NCBI GenBank assembly: GCA_031292215.1
Contig: JARLHO010000148.1
Coordinates: 1-32,000, forward strand
Reading direction: 5' to 3'
Length of the DNA: 32,000 nt
Source: Syntrophobacteraceae bacterium
GTDB lineage: Bacteria > Desulfobacterota > Syntrophobacteria > Syntrophobacterales > Syntrophobacteraceae
The notes under the pieces are model-generated. The model was not told where the DNA came from. It saw only the letters and a program-made list of their open reading frames with translations, and searched no databases. The translations under genes and the position numbers were made by a program. Positions 5,243 to 23,466 of this stretch are shown piece after piece; position 1 is the stretch's first letter, and every line of letters begins with the position of its first letter.

Positions 5243-6343
5243 TCACGACCCGGGTTTCCGGATGGAAACTATTCTTGCTGCGCAAACATCCGCGCCGTCG
5301 ATCCGCAGGTCCGGCGCCCTGCGCTCCATGGCCAGGATCTGAGCGATAGAGGGCGCCCAGTTGCCGGCCCGGAAATTCTTTGAATCGATAAATACCGAGG
5401 TAAGTTCCCTATTAATGGTCTCTACGAGCACATCGTATTCGGATAACTGGCCGCGTTCCGTATAGATGATGGGTGTGCCCTGGGCAAGGCAATCCGAAAC
5501 GATCCCGTAGCCCGGCTTGGTCAGCACCGCATCGGATGCCCCGACGACATCGGCAAACGATACCGGCGCCCCATCCAAACAGATTGCGCCCGCAACGTCA
5601 AATTTCATCGGGCTTTTGTAGAGCAAAACAATTCCGTCCATATTTTCGAGGTTGCCTACCGCGCTTTCCTTGAGATCAAGGCTTACGAAGGAAACCAGGA
5701 TGACCTTATCGGTAGAGGTAAGTCCCAGAATCGAACGTACCAGGGAGCGGGATTTTTTGGCCTTCCGCGCGACCAGGGGAACATCCTCCACCCTGGGACA
5801 GGCCGAACAATCTCCATGCATCGGGAGTCGGAGAAAAAGCGAGCATTTTTGATAGCCGCGCCGAATGGTGGAGATTATGGGGGCCCAGCGAGGGTCTTTG
5901 GCCGCATAGACATCGTATATCCAATCCCACGTAAAGTTGCCGATTCCAATCGAGGGTATCCCGCACCTGTATGCCGCCTCGAACGGAAGCCACGCGATAT
6001 CGGAAATCACAACCTTGATACCCTCGCGCCGGATGAACTCGACTTCGCGAGCTATGATCTGTTCAGACTCCGCGTTCAGGCGGGATAAAAGATCCAGGGA
6101 TTTTTCCAGGTCGAACCTGATGGAATCGTGTTGATAAAGCCCCACGTCGAGTCGCAGGCGTCTGATGCGGGGAAGGCTTCCGAGGTTTTGCTCAACTAGC
6201 GCATCGGGTATATCCGATACGATTATCGGCTCGATACCCGGCGCCAAATCGGCCAGGACCCGCAGGACCTCCAAGGAGCGCACCGCGTGGCCGAACCCGT
6301 GCGGGGTGATATAGTAGGCTATCGCCGACTTTTCTTTCTTCAC
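5243..6343 (-). CDS. GT-B-fold glycosyltransferase-like protein (YYITPHGFGHAVR type)
   Basis: 366 aa from GTG 6343, which is preceded by AGGAG + 6 nt. The N-terminal AYYITPHGFGHAVRS loop and C-terminal TKPGYG(I/T)xSD resemble MurG/GT28-like enzymes and the N-terminal GT domain of plant arabinokinase (from memory). The extra 19 codons of the tracked ORF (to 6400) are just the translated GTGAA repeat. Confidence 0.65.
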   Translation of the reverse strand: MKKEKSAIAYYITPHGFGHAVRSLEVLRVLADLAPGIEPIIVSDIPDALVEQNLGSLPRIRRLRLDVGLYQHDSIRFDLEKSLDLLSRLNAESEQIIAREVEFIRREGIKVVISDIAWLPFEAAYRCGIPSIGIGNFTWDWIYDVYAAKDPRWAPIISTIRRGYQKCSLFLRLPMHGDCSACPRVEDVPLVARKAKKSRSLVRSILGLTSTDKVILVSFVSLDLKESAVGNLENMDGIVLLYKSPMKFDVAGAICLDGAPVSFADVVGASDAVLTKPGYGIVSDCLAQGTPIIYTERGQLSEYDVLVETINRELTSVFIDSKNFRAGNWAPSIAQILAMERRAPDLRIDGADVCAARIVSIRKPGS

Positions 6344-6359: not shown

Positions 6360-6423
6360 GTGAATAGTGAGTAGTGAATAGTGAATAGAAAAAGCTCCAC
6401 TCACCCACTCACCGCTTCACTGC
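6360..6423. repeat. GTGAA/TCAC heptad-rich inverted repeat (copy 2)
   Basis: The left arm is gtgaat-agtgagt-agtgaat-agtgaat-ag (four AGTGAAT-type heptads), followed by aaaaag, then the right arm ctccactcacccactcaccgcttcactgc. It shares the '...gtgaa(c/t)AGAAAAA...' junction with copy 1 at 1315-1392. The right arm overlaps the last codons and stop of mksB. Confidence 0.55.
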
Positions 6424-9400
6424 TCTTTTCCTCCTCCAGCCTCCCGGTAAACCGCCTTCCCCGCACGACGACCTCTTCGGCGCCACTGTCATCGATCCCT
6501 CGCACCAGCCGGTAGGCGGTCCCGCGTCTTGCCCGGTCCGCCGAAGGCGCGGCCACCAGCAGTTGCAGATCCATTCGCTCGCAGAACTCCCCCAGGGTGT
6601 CGAAGGACTTGGGGCTAAGGCGCGCGGCCTCGTCGAGAAAAAGAAAGCGCATGCTCCCCACCTCCCGCTTACCTCTAAAGAGCACTGCCTGGTGCTCCCA
6701 GGCATCGAGTATGACCATGAGAACGGCCGCCCCCACCCCGATGGATTCCCCGGTTGACAGGGTGCTCGAAGATGCCCTTATCCACTTATCCGATCCAAAT
6801 CTTCGGACCTCGGCGCTCATGCGCACGTACTCACGGTAGTCAAGGAGCTGGTCTCCCCGGATCTGACCGCCCCCGACCTGCCGGTAGAGCTCGGACATGG
6901 CTTCCTCTAAAGAGATGTGGGAATTGAAGAGCTCCTTTTGCACCTGCAAGCCGCTTAGCAGTCTTTGCATGCTCTCCACCCGGTCGAGGTAGATGCGAAT
7001 CCCCGCTATGGTCCCAAAACTCACCGCCTCGAGCCTGCGGTTAAGCTGATGGACCTGCCGTTCTTCCGTGCGTATGCGGTTGCGGATACTGTTGGCCACA
7101 GAATCGGAGCGCTGCCTCAATTGCCGCTGCTGGTCGTCTAGCTTTTCTCTTAGCCTCAGGAGATAGCCGCCGATCTGCTTTACGGCGATTTCCGGATCAT
7201 CTGCCTGGGCGATGTCTCGCGGGGTGCTCCTTTCCAGGAATTGGCAAGTCAGAAGCCAGGCCTCCAGGATTAAGAACCCGCGCCGCAAGTCGCTATCCCT
7301 GGTTTCAAAGAGCTTTTCGAGTTCCTGCCGCAGTTCCGCCGCCTCGGGGATCGTCTTCAGGATATTTTTCAGCTCCCCCTGGCGCCTGGAGGCATCCTCG
7401 AAGGCCTGCGCCGCAGTTTTGTTCTCATAAAAAGATAGCACCGAAGGCTCCATCAGCCGGTCCAAAAGCCCTGCGCGCCTTATCCCGCGTTGCAGGCTCA
7501 TCCAGGCCCGAAAGTGTGGCAAAAGATCTTTTAGACACTTTTTCCTCTTGCCGCGAGCCTCGAACACCCGGTTGGAACCTGTTTCCATGTCCTTTTCGGC
7601 CCGGATCAGGTCGTTTCCAACTCCCCGCTCGGCCTTTTGAGCGGCCTTTAACTCCGCCGCCGACGCTTCCCTGAAATTTTCAGCCTCCTCCAGGCTTTGG
7701 CTGCTCCCGTCCTGTCCGGTGCTCTCCAGATCGATTTTGAGGTTTTCAAGCTTTTCGAAAAGCCCCTTGGCCTTTGCATCAAAGGAGTTAAACTCTTCGC
7801 GGCCGCCCCTGTAGTCGAGGTCCGCCTGGCCCAGGACCCGCCTTGCGTCCTCAAGGTCGGAATCGAGCACCCTTTTTTGATTTTTCAATTCCTCGAAAAC
7901 GGACTGATGTTCACCCAGAACTTTTTCCTGGTCACCCAATTTGAGGTGTGGCAACCGGTCGATCAGCGTGACCAGCAGTTCCCGCCCCCTGGACCAGTAT
8001 TCCAGGACGCTCTCGGCCTTGGAGAGCTCCTCTTTTAGCTCGGCTAAAGCCTCGGGGGCCGGTGGAGGATTTTCGAGCTCATACATGCCGCCCCGCACGC
8101 GATCCATTGCCGCTCGAATCGATTCCATGCAGGTCCTGGCGGTTTCGGCGCCCTTTAGCCGGGTCTTTAGTTCCCGTGATTTTTCAAGCCAGTCCTGCTC
8201 ATCGAGCAGATCGGCGTCGGGAAGTATGGGAGCGAGCTCCTTTGCGAGCTCGCCCTGCCTCCGGGTAAGCGTGGCTATCTCCTCCACACGCTTTTTTGCC
8301 GGAAGGGACAAGGAATCTATTTCTCCCAACCGCTCCCGCAGCCGGGCGATTGCTTCGGCGGGATCGGGCGAGCCCAGGAAGCGATAATGCCTCCTTAGCA
8401 GTCCAATTTTTTCGAGCCCTTCAAGCAACCGCGCCTCTTCGCTTCGAGCCGTTTGGGTTTCGGCCCGAAGACTTTCCGCGTAAGCCCTGAGTCTTTCGAC
8501 TTCGAGTTCCCGGGCGGCGCGGCCAACCGCCGGCCTTTCCGGGTGGCGGGAAAGTCGCCACGCGTCCCCCATTTTGACCAGCTCGGCCGCCGGATAGGGC
8601 TTACCTTCGGGGAGCCCCTTTAAGGTCCCGGCCTCAATGAGCCAGACGTGTTCGGGGCGGTCGGGCTCTCTAGAGATTATCTCGGCGGCTTGCGGGATGT
8701 CTTCGACCAGAAGGGCCCCGAGCAGCGGGCCGAGTCGGGCCTCAAGGGCCGGAGCTTCCGCCTGCGGGGTATCGTCGTAGAGTTCGGCGGCAAGAGCCCC
8801 ATCTACCAGGTCGCGAAGTCGTACCAGCGCTTCATCGAGGCGTCCGCCCCCGAATTCGAGTTCGGAGATTTTCGAAAGGGTGGCTTCCCGGTCCTTATGA
8901 AGGAGTCTCAGCTTTCCGCGAACAGTTTCCAGATCGGCCCTGGCGCTAGAATCGAGACTATCCAGCGAGGGCCCGTCGGTTATTTTTGCCAACAGTCCGG
9001 CTTCGAGTTTGCCGACGATCGCCCGGGCCTGCTTCCACTCTAAGGCCTCCGGACCCAGCCGCCCGATTTGTTGCTCCAGCAGCGCTTTTTCTTCTCTTAG
9101 CGTGGCAAGGCGCTCCTGGAGGCTTGAGCGCTCCTCGGACATCTTGGTCAACTCTTTTTGAAGGGATTCGAAAAGCGAGCGCAACCCTTGCGCGCCGGCA
9201 GCCTTTTCCCCCATGTTTTCAAAAAATGAGGCCTTCTTGCGTACCTCCTGCTGGCGTTCCCCCCTTTTTACGGCCCGCCTCAACTGCTCGGAAATGTTTG
9301 CGGCCTCCCTTACCATCATCTCCATATTCCGGAACTCGTCTTCGAGCTCTTTTGCCGTCTCCAGCCCGTTTTCCCGCGATACGCTCTTTCCCGAAGCGCT

Positions 9401-20125: not shown

Positions 20126-20202
20126 CGGGCCGGCTGGGTTGTGGATCGGAGCGAACAGGGAACTTCGCAAAAACCCTCGAACCAACTCCGGTGGCATTCT
20201 AT

Positions 20203-20317
20203 TCTAATGCAGTTTTTCTGTTAAATCAAGTCGTTAGGATTTATTCCGATCAAACCCCAATAAGTCGTCGCCTCTGCGACTCTGCGGCAGCTTTCTTAAT
20301 TAGAACAAATTTAGCGT
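20203..20317 (+). repeat. Direct repeat unit A (115 bp)
   Basis: tctaatgcagtttttctgttaaatcaagtcgttagga...gatcaaaccccaataagtcgtcgcctctgcg[actctgc]g..ctttcttaattagaacaaatttagcgt. It aligns with unit B at 20942-21136 in the same orientation. Confidence 0.75.
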
Positions 20318-20526
20318 CCCTCCCCTCCTTCTCGGAGCAAAAGAGGCTGATTCGGCGCTGATACACCGAGCCGGCCACCGATCTGAGGGGCGGCTGCCAA
20401 CACATCCCGGGGGCCGGCAGCGAAGGGGAAAGAGGTGAGACATTTACCCCCCCTGTGCTGAAAAAACAGCAAAAAAACAAAGCCCGTCTTTTATTAACCA
20501 ACCGATTTCACGTGACATATTCGATT

Positions 20527-20606
20527 CACAGCGCCCAAATAACAGCCATGGAACAGCATGGGTAACAGCAGAGTTAACAGCACAATAACAGCAGTAATTT
20601 ACAGCA
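20527..20606 (+). repeat. Array 1: seven (A)ACAGC(A) motifs at 11-14 bp phasing
   Basis: ACAGC starts at 20528, 20542, 20553, 20565, 20577, 20588 and 20601 (intervals 14, 11, 12, 12, 11, 13). A given pentamer is expected about once per kb per strand. The array ends 5 nt before the SD GGAGGAG (20611-20617). Confidence 0.8.
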
Positions 20607-20627
20607 GATAGGAGGAGACGCAAATGA

Positions 20628-20638
20628 GGGGGGGGGGG
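20628..20638 (+). repeat. G11 homopolymer immediately after an SD-preceded ATG
   Basis: ggaggagacgcaaATGa-g11-ctt, with ATG at 20624. As written the ORF stops after 18 codons (TAG 20678-20680). Confidence 0.9.
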
Positions 20639-20787
20639 CTTAAAAGCGATTCAGTATTCAGTTTTAAAAGAACGTCGTAGCGAGCAGGGGAAAAGATATT
20701 CGCGGCGGGGCGATACCCCTGGTGCATCGGAGCCCTTTGGCCCGTTAATCCGCAAGGGATATAGCACGAAACTGATTAGCTCTGCAA

Positions 20788-20862
20788 AACGGCAACGAGA
20801 AACGGAAACGAGGAGCGGCAAATGAAACGGCGACCAGAAACGGCAAAAGTCCATGCGGCAAC
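20788..20862 (+). repeat. Array 2: six (A/G)(A/G)CGG(C/A)(A/G)A motifs at 12-15 bp phasing
   Basis: aacggcaa 20788, aacggaaa 20801, agcggcaa 20814, aacggcga 20826, aacggcaa 20839, tgcggcaa 20854 (intervals 13, 13, 12, 13, 15). The consensus AACGGCA differs from array 1 (AACAGCA) by one base. The SD GAGGAG (20810-20815) and ATG 20822 are embedded in it. Confidence 0.75.
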
Positions 20863-20941
20863 TGAGCAGGGATGATGGGAAGATGATGAAACGCAAGCCA
20901 TACAAAAGATTGAGGGGGTAAGAGGGCAGAGGTTATCCTGG

Positions 20942-21136
20942 TCTAATGCAGTCCTTCTGCTTAATCCAGCAGTCAGGGACCATCTGGAAACCCCGGCCGT
21001 GGGGGCGGTGAGCACAAGCATCACCATGTCCACCAAGAAATTTCCGGATGGACAGACTATTTGGGACTGGTCCCGGTCAAAGCCCGATAAGTCGTCGCCT
21101 CTGCGGTATTCTTTCTTTTTAGAACAAATTTACCGT
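20942..21136 (+). repeat. Direct repeat unit B (195 bp; the unit A sequence plus a ~96 bp internal insertion and a 7-bp deletion)
   Basis: 20942-20979 (tctaatgcagtccttctgcttaatccagcagtcaggga) matches the A 5' part. 21076-21136 (gtcaaagcccgataagtcgtcgcctctgcggtattctttctttttagaacaaatttaccgt) matches the A 3' part. Confidence 0.75.
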
Positions 21137-21548
21137 GAAAACCAACTCAGGAACCTTTGACAGGATGGACGGCAACCATGTATAGTAGCAGGGTGGTCGT
21201 TAGGCAACGTTTTCGCGTCGCCAGGTTAAATGGGTCTCCAATCGAACCGATTTCAATTTCTATTCTCTCTTTCTGGCTTTCCTCTTCAGGACCGATTTGC
21301 GACGCCGGCGGCGTCCATTTTGCCACGCGCCGGATTGTCGCCGCGCTGTAAAGATCCATTTCTACCGATTCGGCAAGATATCTGCCGGCGTGGTGTATTC
21401 TGGTCAATGGGAATTTATCCGGCAAGGAACTAACGGCTCTTTAGCCTGGCACACTGTACATGCTGACGGAGATCTGTGGACGGAGGGCGGGAAAAGACTT
21501 CCGGTGCGGATATGGTCTCCAATAGCCCAAAAATAAGGAGATGGACCG

Positions 21549-21939: not shown

Positions 21940-22092
21940 CCCCCGCTTAGCCTACCCTGAAGCCGCCTTTTGCCGGTTTTTAAGGACGCCCCCGCCCCCC
22001 CCGGGAGGAGGTGAAGAGCTCGCGCAATGCGTGCCGCGCTAAAGCCCCGAGAGTCCGGTTACGTGCAGTTTTTCCCTTGGAGGAGGAGAGAA

Positions 22093-23466
22093 ATGGGCAT
22101 CAAACGGTTTAGCAAACTCATCTTCTTATTGGCCGTGGCTGGATTTCTTGGCGTCCTGACGGCAAGGCAAGCCCGGGCGGTGCCAAGTTTTGCGCGCCAG
22201 ACGGGCCAAGCCTGTTCCACATGCCATACTATGTTTCCCGAACTGACGCCATTCGGACGCACCTTTAAATTAACGGGCTACGTATTGAATAAGGACGGCG
22301 CCTCCCATCCGAGCGCGCCACCGGTGGCGGCCATGGTCCAACTCTCTCTCACGCACACCCGGCAGGCGCAGGCGCCCGGCTCTTTGCCGGATAACGGCTG
22401 GTCTCTTCACGCGCTTAGCTCCGAAAACGATGTGGCCGGCACGCCTCAGGCGGCCAGCCTGTTCTATGGAGGCCAGATATACGGCCATTGGGGCGCGCTC
22501 ATCCAGGGAACTTACTCAAACACCGATAACCGCTCATTTTTGGACATGTCGGATATTCGCTATGCGAACTCCACCTCGTTTTGCGGCAAGAACCTCATTT
22601 ACGGATTTACTTTCAATAACAACCCGACATCCGAAGACGTCTGGAACTCGACGCCGGCGTGGAGCTATCCGTATGGCTTTTCAGACGTCGGGCCAACTCC
22701 TGTTACGCCGGTCGCGGCCCCATTGATCTTTTCTCTATCCTCCTTGGTGGGAGGCGCGGGCGCTTACGTTTACTGGAACAACTGGCTCTACGTCGAGACC
22801 GCCGTCTACCGCACGTCCCTCGACGGGATCACCGCTCCATTCGGAGCGGGAGGTCATCCGCTCGGCGCTTATACCGACGGAGGCATCCCTTATTGGCGCC
22901 TGGCGCTCACACACCAATACGGCCCTCATTCGTTTGAAATCGGCACCTACGGGTTGGCGGCAAGAGTCTATTCCAGTTACCCCAGCCCACCTGCCGACAA
23001 TTACCGGGACGTGGCCTTCGATGCGCAATATCAGTATATTTTCGGCAATCAATCCTTTTCGGCGCAGACAACCTGGGTGCATGAAGACCAGGACCTTACC
23101 GCCAGCGTCAACTCAGGAATTCCTAGCAACCTCACCAACTATCTGGACACTTTCAAGATCAACGGCAACTACTATTACCGAACGAAACATTGCGGGCAAC
23201 TCGGAGGGACGCTTTCGTATTTTTCGACAACCGGAAGCGACGACGCCTCGCTCTACAGCACTGCCGCCTCCCCGAACGGCAATCCCAACAGTCACGGCGA
23301 AATACTCGAACTGGACTACATGCCGCCCTGGCACGACTACGGACCGGGCGGATTGGGTTTCGCCAAGTTCACGCTGCAGTATGTCATCTTCAACGAGTTT
23401 AACGGCAGCAGTAGCGGAGCATCCGCCAACAACACTCTCTATCTTCTCGCCTGGTTCATGTTCTGA
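22093..23466 (+). CDS. Fused monohaem cytochrome / outer-membrane beta-barrel protein (Cyc2-like architecture)
   Basis: 457 aa from ATG 22093 (GGAGGAGGAG SD). Signal peptide ...LTARQARA. It then reads VPSFARQTGQACSTCHTMFPELTPFGRTFKLTGY (one CXXCH), followed by ~400 aa of alternating aromatic/polar strands rich in Y/G/N/S/T, ending ...LYLLAWFMF (terminal Phe, an OMP signature). Confidence 0.7.
   Translation: MGIKRFSKLIFLLAVAGFLGVLTARQARAVPSFARQTGQACSTCHTMFPELTPFGRTFKLTGYVLNKDGASHPSAPPVAAMVQLSLTHTRQAQAPGSLPDNGWSLHALSSENDVAGTPQAASLFYGGQIYGHWGALIQGTYSNTDNRSFLDMSDIRYANSTSFCGKNLIYGFTFNNNPTSEDVWNSTPAWSYPYGFSDVGPTPVTPVAAPLIFSLSSLVGGAGAYVYWNNWLYVETAVYRTSLDGITAPFGAGGHPLGAYTDGGIPYWRLALTHQYGPHSFEIGTYGLAARVYSSYPSPPADNYRDVAFDAQYQYIFGNQSFSAQTTWVHEDQDLTASVNSGIPSNLTNYLDTFKINGNYYYRTKHCGQLGGTLSYFSTTGSDDASLYSTAASPNGNPNSHGEILELDYMPPWHDYGPGGLGFAKFTLQYVIFNEFNGSSSGASANNTLYLLAWFMF

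Follow-up and report, generated by a model that had tools for sequence, protein, structure and literature searches.

Two constrained short-motif arrays in a 948-nt insertion beside a cytochrome cluster of a Syntrophobacteraceae bacterium

DNA boxes of the OmpR/PhoB/PhoP type keep a fixed register of 10–11 bp and lie at or near the −35 box. Among RNA-binding proteins, CsrA recognizes the motif GGA and Hfq recognizes A-R-N runs or the pattern AAnAAnAA, and among mobile elements the Tn9-like composites carry directly oriented flanking copies. CrcZ is an RNA of 407 nt that titrates Hfq through six A-rich stretches, and it is driven by CbrB and RpoN (PMC4063720). R1 parC is made of two sets of five contiguous 11-bp iterons placed around the par promoter, with a gap of 39 bp, next to parM/parR (PMC2241845). 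Here we describe a locus that can be compared with each of these, namely two arrays of short direct repeats in a non-coding region between a peptidase M54 gene and a cytochrome cluster of a Syntrophobacteraceae bacterium (GCA_031292215.1). The analysed stretch, positions 1 to 32,000 of contig JARLHO010000148.1, is called the window, and all coordinates refer to it unless another locus is named. A previous account of this DNA, made from its letters without database searches (the sequence-only reading), had taken the arrays for helically phased platforms for DNA-binding proteins that may control the cytochrome cluster. We find that the arrays are real, constrained and far beyond chance. Comparison with related loci indicates that the 1.4-kb region around them is an ordinary spacer plus a lineage-specific insertion of 948 nt that carries them, so they are a recent addition and not an ancestral control of the cytochrome cluster. 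As for their role, we lean tentatively towards a multivalent binding platform at the RNA level, a reading that we put at somewhat less than an even chance.

The arrays and the block that carries them

Array 1 (20528..20605, + strand) consists of seven units of the form (T)A-ACAGC-A, and array 2 (20788..20861, + strand) of six units of the AAACGG(C/A)AA type. The ACAGC cores of array 1 start at 20528, 20542, 20553, 20565, 20577, 20588 and 20601, with spacings of 14, 11, 12, 12, 11 and 13 (mean 12.17), and the CGG(C/A)(A/G)A cores of array 2 start at 20790, 20803, 20816, 20828, 20841 and 20856, with spacings of 13, 13, 12, 13 and 15 (mean 13.2); all thirteen lie in the spans that the sequence-only reading had given for the two arrays. 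Tandem Repeats Finder returns periods of 12 nt for array 1 and 13 nt for array 2, and the gap between the arrays is 182 bp. Every core position of array 1 is invariant (35 of 35, with ACAGC in 7/7 units), and its spacers vary in both sequence and length; spacer divergence is about 40–50%, an estimate made by eye from the list of spacers and not computed. Within either array the third base of the core never changes, being A in one and G in the other. Markov simulations gave at most 3–4 cores per 80 nt, under the composition of the whole window and under the local purine-rich composition alike, and with the local model the observed core counts were reached in 0 of 2000 simulations. Where 8.2 copies of the heptamer AACRGCA would be expected in the window, there are 24. 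A sequence-specific reader of the arrays is suggested because the cores are invariant while the spacers have diverged and are unequal in length.

The proposed helical phasing does not survive measurement. At 10.5 bp per turn the phase coherence is 0.18 for array 1 and 0.12 for array 2, as against 0.95 at 12 nt and 13 nt, respectively. The cores of array 1 fall at 0, 120, 137, 189, 240, 257 and 343 degrees around the helix, and those of array 2 at 0, 86, 171, 223, 309 and 103 degrees. Binding of a winged-helix regulator (OmpR/PhoB/PhoP) once per turn is likewise at odds with variable periods of 12 and 13 nt instead of 10–11. The supposed PhoP-box form TT(A/T/C)ACA fits three of the seven hexamers of array 1 (TTCACA, TTAACA and TTTACA), and the invariant part is ACAGC, not TT. 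The more general idea of a multimeric binding platform is still reasonable given the constrained cores; it is the winged-helix, once-per-turn version that finds no support. Annotation of the 32 kb agrees with the sequence-only reading in that no winged-helix regulator is encoded there, nor did we find a gene for a partition protein, a recombinase or a known RNA chaperone.

The sequence-only reading had treated positions 20126–21548 as one uniform gene-free region of 1.4 kb. In our comparison it resolves into about 463 nt of ordinary spacer and a non-coding block of 948 nt (20192..21139, + strand). The relatives used are metagenome loci, found through the response regulator (80–85% amino acid identity) and a 457-aa protein of the cytochrome cluster (64–81%). 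Three of them (L084, L085 and L086) keep the order kinase–regulator–M54–cytochrome cluster, with an M54–cytochrome c spacer of 353 nt; the corresponding upstream regions of L087 and L088 measure 661 nt and 415 nt, and in the regulator-matched loci L004–L006 and L009 an M54 orthologue, assigned by position and length, is followed by convergent genes after 9–266 nt. The block is absent from the L084 spacer, from L087 and from L088, and no retrieved locus holds either the arrays or the element, called A, that is repeated at the two ends of the block. Once 20192–21151 is taken out, the remaining 463-nt spacer is colinear with the 353-nt spacer of L084 (254 matches), the alignment runs straight across the junction, and its score is +19, compared with −373 for the full region. 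The block is abutted on the left by a 12-nt sequence, AACCAACTCCGG (20180..20191, + strand), and on the right by AACCAACTCAGG (21140..21151, + strand), which is identical to it at 11 of 12 positions. Both copies were detected by repeat search, with the ancestral junction reconstructed against L084; their consensus is AACCAACTC(C/A)GG (11/12), and we estimate the chance of such a flanking match at these positions at about 1 in 1000. This flanking duplication and the colinear remainder together imply that the block is an insertion. It has no significant terminal inverted repeats that would explain how it was inserted: the best end-to-end match is 6 nt, no better than in shuffled sequences. Searches with the block gave no match in any of the fetched loci (blastn and nhmmer) or in plasmid and phage collections (blastn), and extended homology between the two array modules is not significant. 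The sequence-only reading had regarded lack of conservation in close relatives, together with lack of further arrays in the genome, as refuting its proposal; the region is indeed unconserved in the retrieved relatives, and within the 32-kb window, over which the second point was examined, there is no other comparable array.

The block is composed of one copy of A, then 617 nt holding both arrays, then a second copy. The left terminal direct repeat, A1 (20196..20317, + strand), contains the exact 19-mer ATAAGTCGTCGCCTCTGCG (20260–20278) and a hairpin followed by a T-rich tail, with a terminator-like site at 20274–20287. The right one, A2 (20935..21136, + strand), contains the same 19-mer (21087–21105) and in addition a hairpin-rich insert of 83 nt (about 20978–21060). 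In the repeat search the two share an element of about 120 nt in direct orientation with 74–82% identity, and nhmmer aligns them with E=8e-8; beyond A, the sequences that follow A1 and A2 show no homology to each other. The 19-mer is present in two exact copies against 0.01 expected, and the window holds no further copy of A. Among 185,579 reference genomes it has one match, in a metagenome-assembled genome of Clostridiales, which is presumably due to chance, and it has none in viral contigs. We rejected a reading of A1 and A2 as attL/attR, as the empty site of L084 has no A-like core. A2 is strongly structured on the + strand only: the stretch 20990–21128 folds there with −50.5 kcal/mol (z=−2.8), compared with z=−1.2 for the − strand. 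The differences between A1 and A2 leave the stems paired, either by G·U pairs, for which the other strand would have C·A mismatches, or by one double substitution. In the predicted structure the 83-nt insert pairs with the conserved 19-mer core; the insert also has strong hairpins of its own, including a palindrome at 21027–21054. Within A2, the hairpin GTCGCCTCTGCGGT followed by ATTCTTTCTTTTT (21094..21120, + strand), recognized from a terminator-like site and from the fold, is a candidate 3′ end of a + strand RNA. Short Logan contigs assembled from short reads of the same strain are identical in sequence to the window. Some of them end at 20816, inside array 2, and some begin at 21095, in the 19-mer core of A2, perhaps because these sequences recur elsewhere in the genome or because strains vary at these points.

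A possible RNA platform and the readings that compete with it

The sequence-only reading had allowed, as a fallback, that the arrays might act as a protein-titrating RNA if transcribed, and in our assessment this version fits the evidence best. Transcription of the + strand would start from a weak extended −10 promoter, with its start site on the first ACAGC, or would arrive by read-through from the M54 gene, and it would stop near 21120, at the hairpin of A2 and its U-tract. The product, about 600 nt long, would be purine-rich and poorly structured and would present seven UAACAGCA and six AAACGGCAA in single-stranded form ahead of a stable structured 3′ domain (A2). In such an RNA the repeats could serve as a multivalent decoy or as a recruitment site for a putative RNA-binding factor. 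As no homologues were found, the proposed transcript and its ends, the binding of a factor and a possible role as decoy are all inferred, and the function of the arrays is unproven.

Several features of the sequence point in this direction. The promoter-like site (20494..20521, + strand) reads TTAACC, 16 nt, TGaCATATT, matches at 8 of 12 positions and has an A/T-rich stretch upstream; read from the sequence, it would place the start near 20528. No part of the window is as rich in purines on the + strand as 20550–20935, at 67% (window mean 0.49, sd 0.046), and the richness extends to the spacers and to the stretch after array 2; the 78 nt spanning array 2 (20785–20862) have only 3 T. Folding predicts that most of either array stays unpaired: relative to shuffled sequences the z-scores are −0.8 (array 1) and +1.4 (array 2). 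The + strand structure of A2, its terminal hairpin with T-tract and the G·U-preserved stems of A1 and A2 also fit a + strand RNA, as do the constrained cores and the lack of coding homology described below, and CrcZ offers a precedent for a decoy RNA with several motifs. RNA is favoured over DNA also because the jitter of 11–15 nt between cores suits a flexible single strand and not the fixed registers of 10–11 bp used on DNA.

A number of observations weigh against an RNA platform. The promoter at 20494–20521 falls below the threshold of the promoter scan, and no sigma-54 promoter is present in the region at a consensus of at least 9/12. No homologous sequence was found anywhere, hence there is no support from covariation or conservation, and neither motif corresponds to a known specificity of an RNA-binding protein: of (ARN)n runs of at least 3 there are 4 where 3.4 would be expected (p=0.43), and the repeated core is not GGA, which, judged by eye and not computed, is no commoner than composition predicts. 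Purine-rich direct repeats by themselves give strand bias and low structure, so that parts of the evidence are not independent, and a third core base that is uniform within each array is also what tandem expansion on the spot would produce. Rfam, searched with the whole region and its subregions at the gathering threshold and at E≤10, returned nothing meaningful, and no tRNA or tmRNA was detected in the region. We also rejected three more specific candidates: a Rho rut site on the − strand, since the core of array 1 has no YC dinucleotides; a CsrA site, by eye on the GGA motif and not by computation; and an analogy with CbrB–CrcZ at the promoter level, there being no sigma-54 promoter. One extension of the favoured reading would make the 948-nt block a new kind of non-autonomous mobile cassette, in which A1 and A2, as directly repeated and structured RNA modules, bracket and mobilize a self-contained regulatory RNA whose two arrays titrate a host RNA-binding factor. 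It would amount to a transposable decoy RNA that has landed beside a respiratory operon promoter. We think this improbable.

We rank the RNA platform above two readings that dispense with RNA: cis-sites of a defective mobile element, and below these a functionless repeat. In the former the arrays would be duplex DNA sites of a non-autonomous mobile or formerly episomal element, read in trans by a protein for partition, packaging, recombination directionality or transposition whose gene lies elsewhere. The insertion behaviour of the block, with its 11/12 flanking duplication of 12 nt and a colinear empty site in a relative, speaks for it; elements that are not autonomous as a rule contain nothing but cis-sites, for which a pair of separate groups of short direct repeats is a classic layout, and the invariant cores imply a sequence-specific reader here as well. 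With spacings of 11–15, however, the cores spiral round the helix, unlike the fixed 10–11 bp of parC and OmpR/PhoB-type sites, there is no promoter between the arrays, and the arrays differ systematically at one core base. The 32-kb window, furthermore, is chromosomal housekeeping DNA with no par, rep, int, terminase or winged-helix gene and no plasmid similarity, and the searches of plasmids and phages with the block, and of viral contigs with its 19-mer, gave no match. We consider this reading rather unlikely, though it is a serious competitor and the nearest one. A functionless repeat, the next in order and unlikely too, would consist of self-propagating, degenerate tandem repeats in inserted junk, with slippage at ACAGC/ACGGC microhomology regenerating units. 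It would account for the absence of the arrays from every retrieved relative, for the single core variant found within each array, which local expansion from a founder unit would produce, and for the pairwise resemblance of some spacers; other short-period repeats exist in the same genome (heptads at 1309 and 6360), and an unrelated AGAGCCGGGG array occurs in the nearest relative. What it leaves unexplained is that 35 of 35 core positions are intact beside heavily diverged spacers, for which an ad hoc bias is needed, and that the spacers are unequal in length, which is not a product of simple unit slippage.

Two further readings involve coding. The sequence-only reading noted two pairs of Shine–Dalgarno (SD) sequence and start codon, and both exist. 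In the first, GGAGGAG (20611) precedes the ATG at 20624; in the second, inside array 2, GAGGAG (20810) precedes the ATG at 20822. Each opens a frame of 17 codons, the first (20607..20677 with its SD, + strand) having a run of eleven G (G11, 20627–20637) directly after the ATG, and the second ending at 20875. The arrays could thus be unstructured A-rich leaders or enhancers for two tiny genes, possibly phase-variable through G11. Both start codons have strong, well-spaced SD sequences; with G10 instead of G11 the −1 frame would run for 67 codons from ATG 20624 and end exactly in a TGA that overlaps ATG 20822 (ATGA); and a CU-rich tract, CCCTCCCCTCCTTCTC (20318..20333, + strand), is able to pair with the first SD. 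The tract is complementary to this SD and the G-run (20609–20640), and the long-range helix is present in both the minimum free energy and the centroid fold of 20300–20700, the whole fold of which is not significant (z −0.52). G11 is identical in the independent Logan assembly. Against such genes, SD-like GGAGG is expected in purine-rich sequence, array 2 runs on past its ATG, and the frame of the second small open reading frame (ORF) is open to 21160, spanning A2, only after one in-frame TGA. Homology is missing as well: the G-run-corrected product of 66 aa has no homologue among 5.8 billion proteins, and for the 94-aa frame across A2 a search of 1.84 billion representatives gave only two marginal matches, with scores raised by internal repeats. 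No Pfam family matched the ORFs of at least about 50 codons that were tested in the region, and PHROGs gave nothing for the three reconstructed + strand ORFs, in agreement with the earlier statement that no ORF in 20126–21548 has a recognisable motif. Coding is excluded as far as these tools reach, and we regard the tiny genes as improbable. More improbable still is that the region is what remains, after decay, of a gene for a protein with a 4-residue (12-nt) repeat; a decayed gene of a repeat-containing protein is what the sequence-only reading had named as a possible refutation of its own view. In favour of such decay, exact repeats of AACAGC/AAACGG with a 12-nt period are common in viral contigs, where they are presumably in-frame coding repeats, and some of the differences between the 5′ parts of A1 and A2 are synonymous (SNAVFLLNQVVR vs SNAVLLLNPAVR). 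Our array-pattern scans of viral contigs, which returned mostly such exact repeats, probably coding, were uninformative. However, spacings of 11, 13, 14 and 15 break the frame, stop codons abound in the + frames, A1 and A2 read the shared 19-mer in different frames, and no frame tested has protein or family homology; decay, moreover, would not spare the cores.

The cytochrome cluster and the rest of the window

The genes around the block are ordered on the + strand as Tex, a histidine kinase, a sigma-54 response regulator, peptidase M54, the non-coding region and a 115-aa cytochrome c, followed by a CxxCH protein with no Pfam match, c7-type multihaem cytochromes, a Rieske protein and cytochrome b. 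The remaining window holds chromosomal housekeeping genes, namely QueH, a GGDEF protein, FlgM, a MukBEF-like condensin, Ada/AlkA and MGMT. A sigma-70-type promoter of the cytochrome cluster (21157..21186, + strand; TTGACA-18-TATAGT, 11/12) lies outside the insertion, which is placed 5 bp upstream of its −35 box, and it is orthologous to TTGACC-18-TATAAA of L084. A leader hairpin of the cytochrome c gene (GGAGA…GGAAAAGACTTCC…TCTCC; 21468..21520, + strand), also outside the insertion, recurs in L084 (about 7486–7520) and in L088 (about 5363–5400). The arrays are 295–630 bp upstream of the promoter, and their supposed control of the cluster is not supported: the relatives keep the cluster, and L084, the closest syntenic one, keeps both promoter and leader, all without arrays. 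In three diverged genomes the leader hairpin stands directly upstream of the SD of the 115/116-aa cytochrome c, and it may act in cis as a regulatory RNA element for the cytochrome bc cluster. The string (A/G)ACCGATT(T/C) is found at 20502, just upstream of array 1, and at 21246, 21291, 21364 and 21545 in the cytochrome promoter and leader; CCGATT-like strings are also present in the leaders of L084 and L088.

The CxxCH protein itself has 457 aa at 22093–23466 (within a 479-codon ORF, 22027–23466), belongs to no Pfam family and has more than 5,500 homologues; one database protein, recorded from an uncultured Syntrophobacteraceae bacterium, is 100% identical to it. It adjoins a small cytochrome c in every locus inspected; the pair is tandemly duplicated in L292 (6001–9865) and lies near a cluster with an MtrB/PioB-type porin in L293. 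Other repeats were seen at gene ends of the window, where CAGTGAA x4.4 (GTGAA-type heptads) is followed by TTCAC-type heptads at 1309–1390, and GTGAATA x4 by CTCAC/TTCAC heptads at 6360–6425. Both are hairpin-forming and resemble short tandemly repeated intergenic elements, and they may act as bidirectional terminators too. The purine-rich AGAGCCGGGG array of L084 (15944–16064 of that locus) has ten copies at 8–18 nt spacing, upstream of an RHH/PIN toxin–antitoxin pair and 130 nt from the contig end. Arrays of short motifs may thus be a recurrent feature of the lineage.

The locus beside known systems

The corrected picture of the locus is that of a cytochrome cluster which keeps an ordinary promoter and leader, conserved in the syntenic L084, and control by OmpR/PhoP-type boxes is not supported. 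We know of almost no characterised riboregulation in syntrophic Desulfobacterota. If the RNA platform were true, it would bring a new recognition motif, AAC-R-GCA at a period of 12–13 nt, and a new RNA-binding partner in this group; if the block were mobile, regulatory non-coding DNA would have moved as a unit to the promoter of a respiratory operon.

Set against described families, the arrays resemble OmpR/PhoB/PhoP boxes in being direct repeats with an ACA-type hexamer, three of seven fitting TT(A/T/C)ACA. They differ in their period of 12–13 nt, in the invariant ACAGC, in lying at least 295 bp from the only strong promoter, and in having no winged-helix regulator within the window. The block as a whole recalls composite elements and miniature inverted-repeat transposable elements (MITEs) by its colinear empty site, its flanking duplication, its repeated terminal modules and its lack of coding capacity, yet it has neither significant terminal inverted repeats nor a transposase, its terminal repeats are direct and 74–82% identical, and our searches found no further copies. 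Like R1 parC, the locus places two separate groups of 5–7 short direct repeats, all in one orientation, inside a few hundred bp; unlike parC, its spacing varies from 11 to 15, its gap is 182 bp with no promoter-like site in 20606–20787, and it is chromosomal, with no par genes in 32 kb. It fits neither the parC nor the CrcZ family, as the defining features of each are mostly unmet. Relative to CrcZ and CsrB, the motif is ACAGC/ACGGC and not AAnAAnAA/(ARN)n or GGA, the repeats are tightly periodic (12–13 nt) and not scattered, and the locus, inside an insertion, is unconserved in the retrieved relatives and has no Rfam match; in contrast to CrcZ it also has no sigma-54 promoter. Nevertheless, it lies directly downstream of a sigma-54 two-component operon, as does CrcZ (PMC4063720), and like the decoys CrcZ/CrcY and CsrB/RsmZ it would give a putative non-coding RNA of a few hundred nt, with 6–7 copies of a short motif that are predicted to be exposed in single-stranded form.

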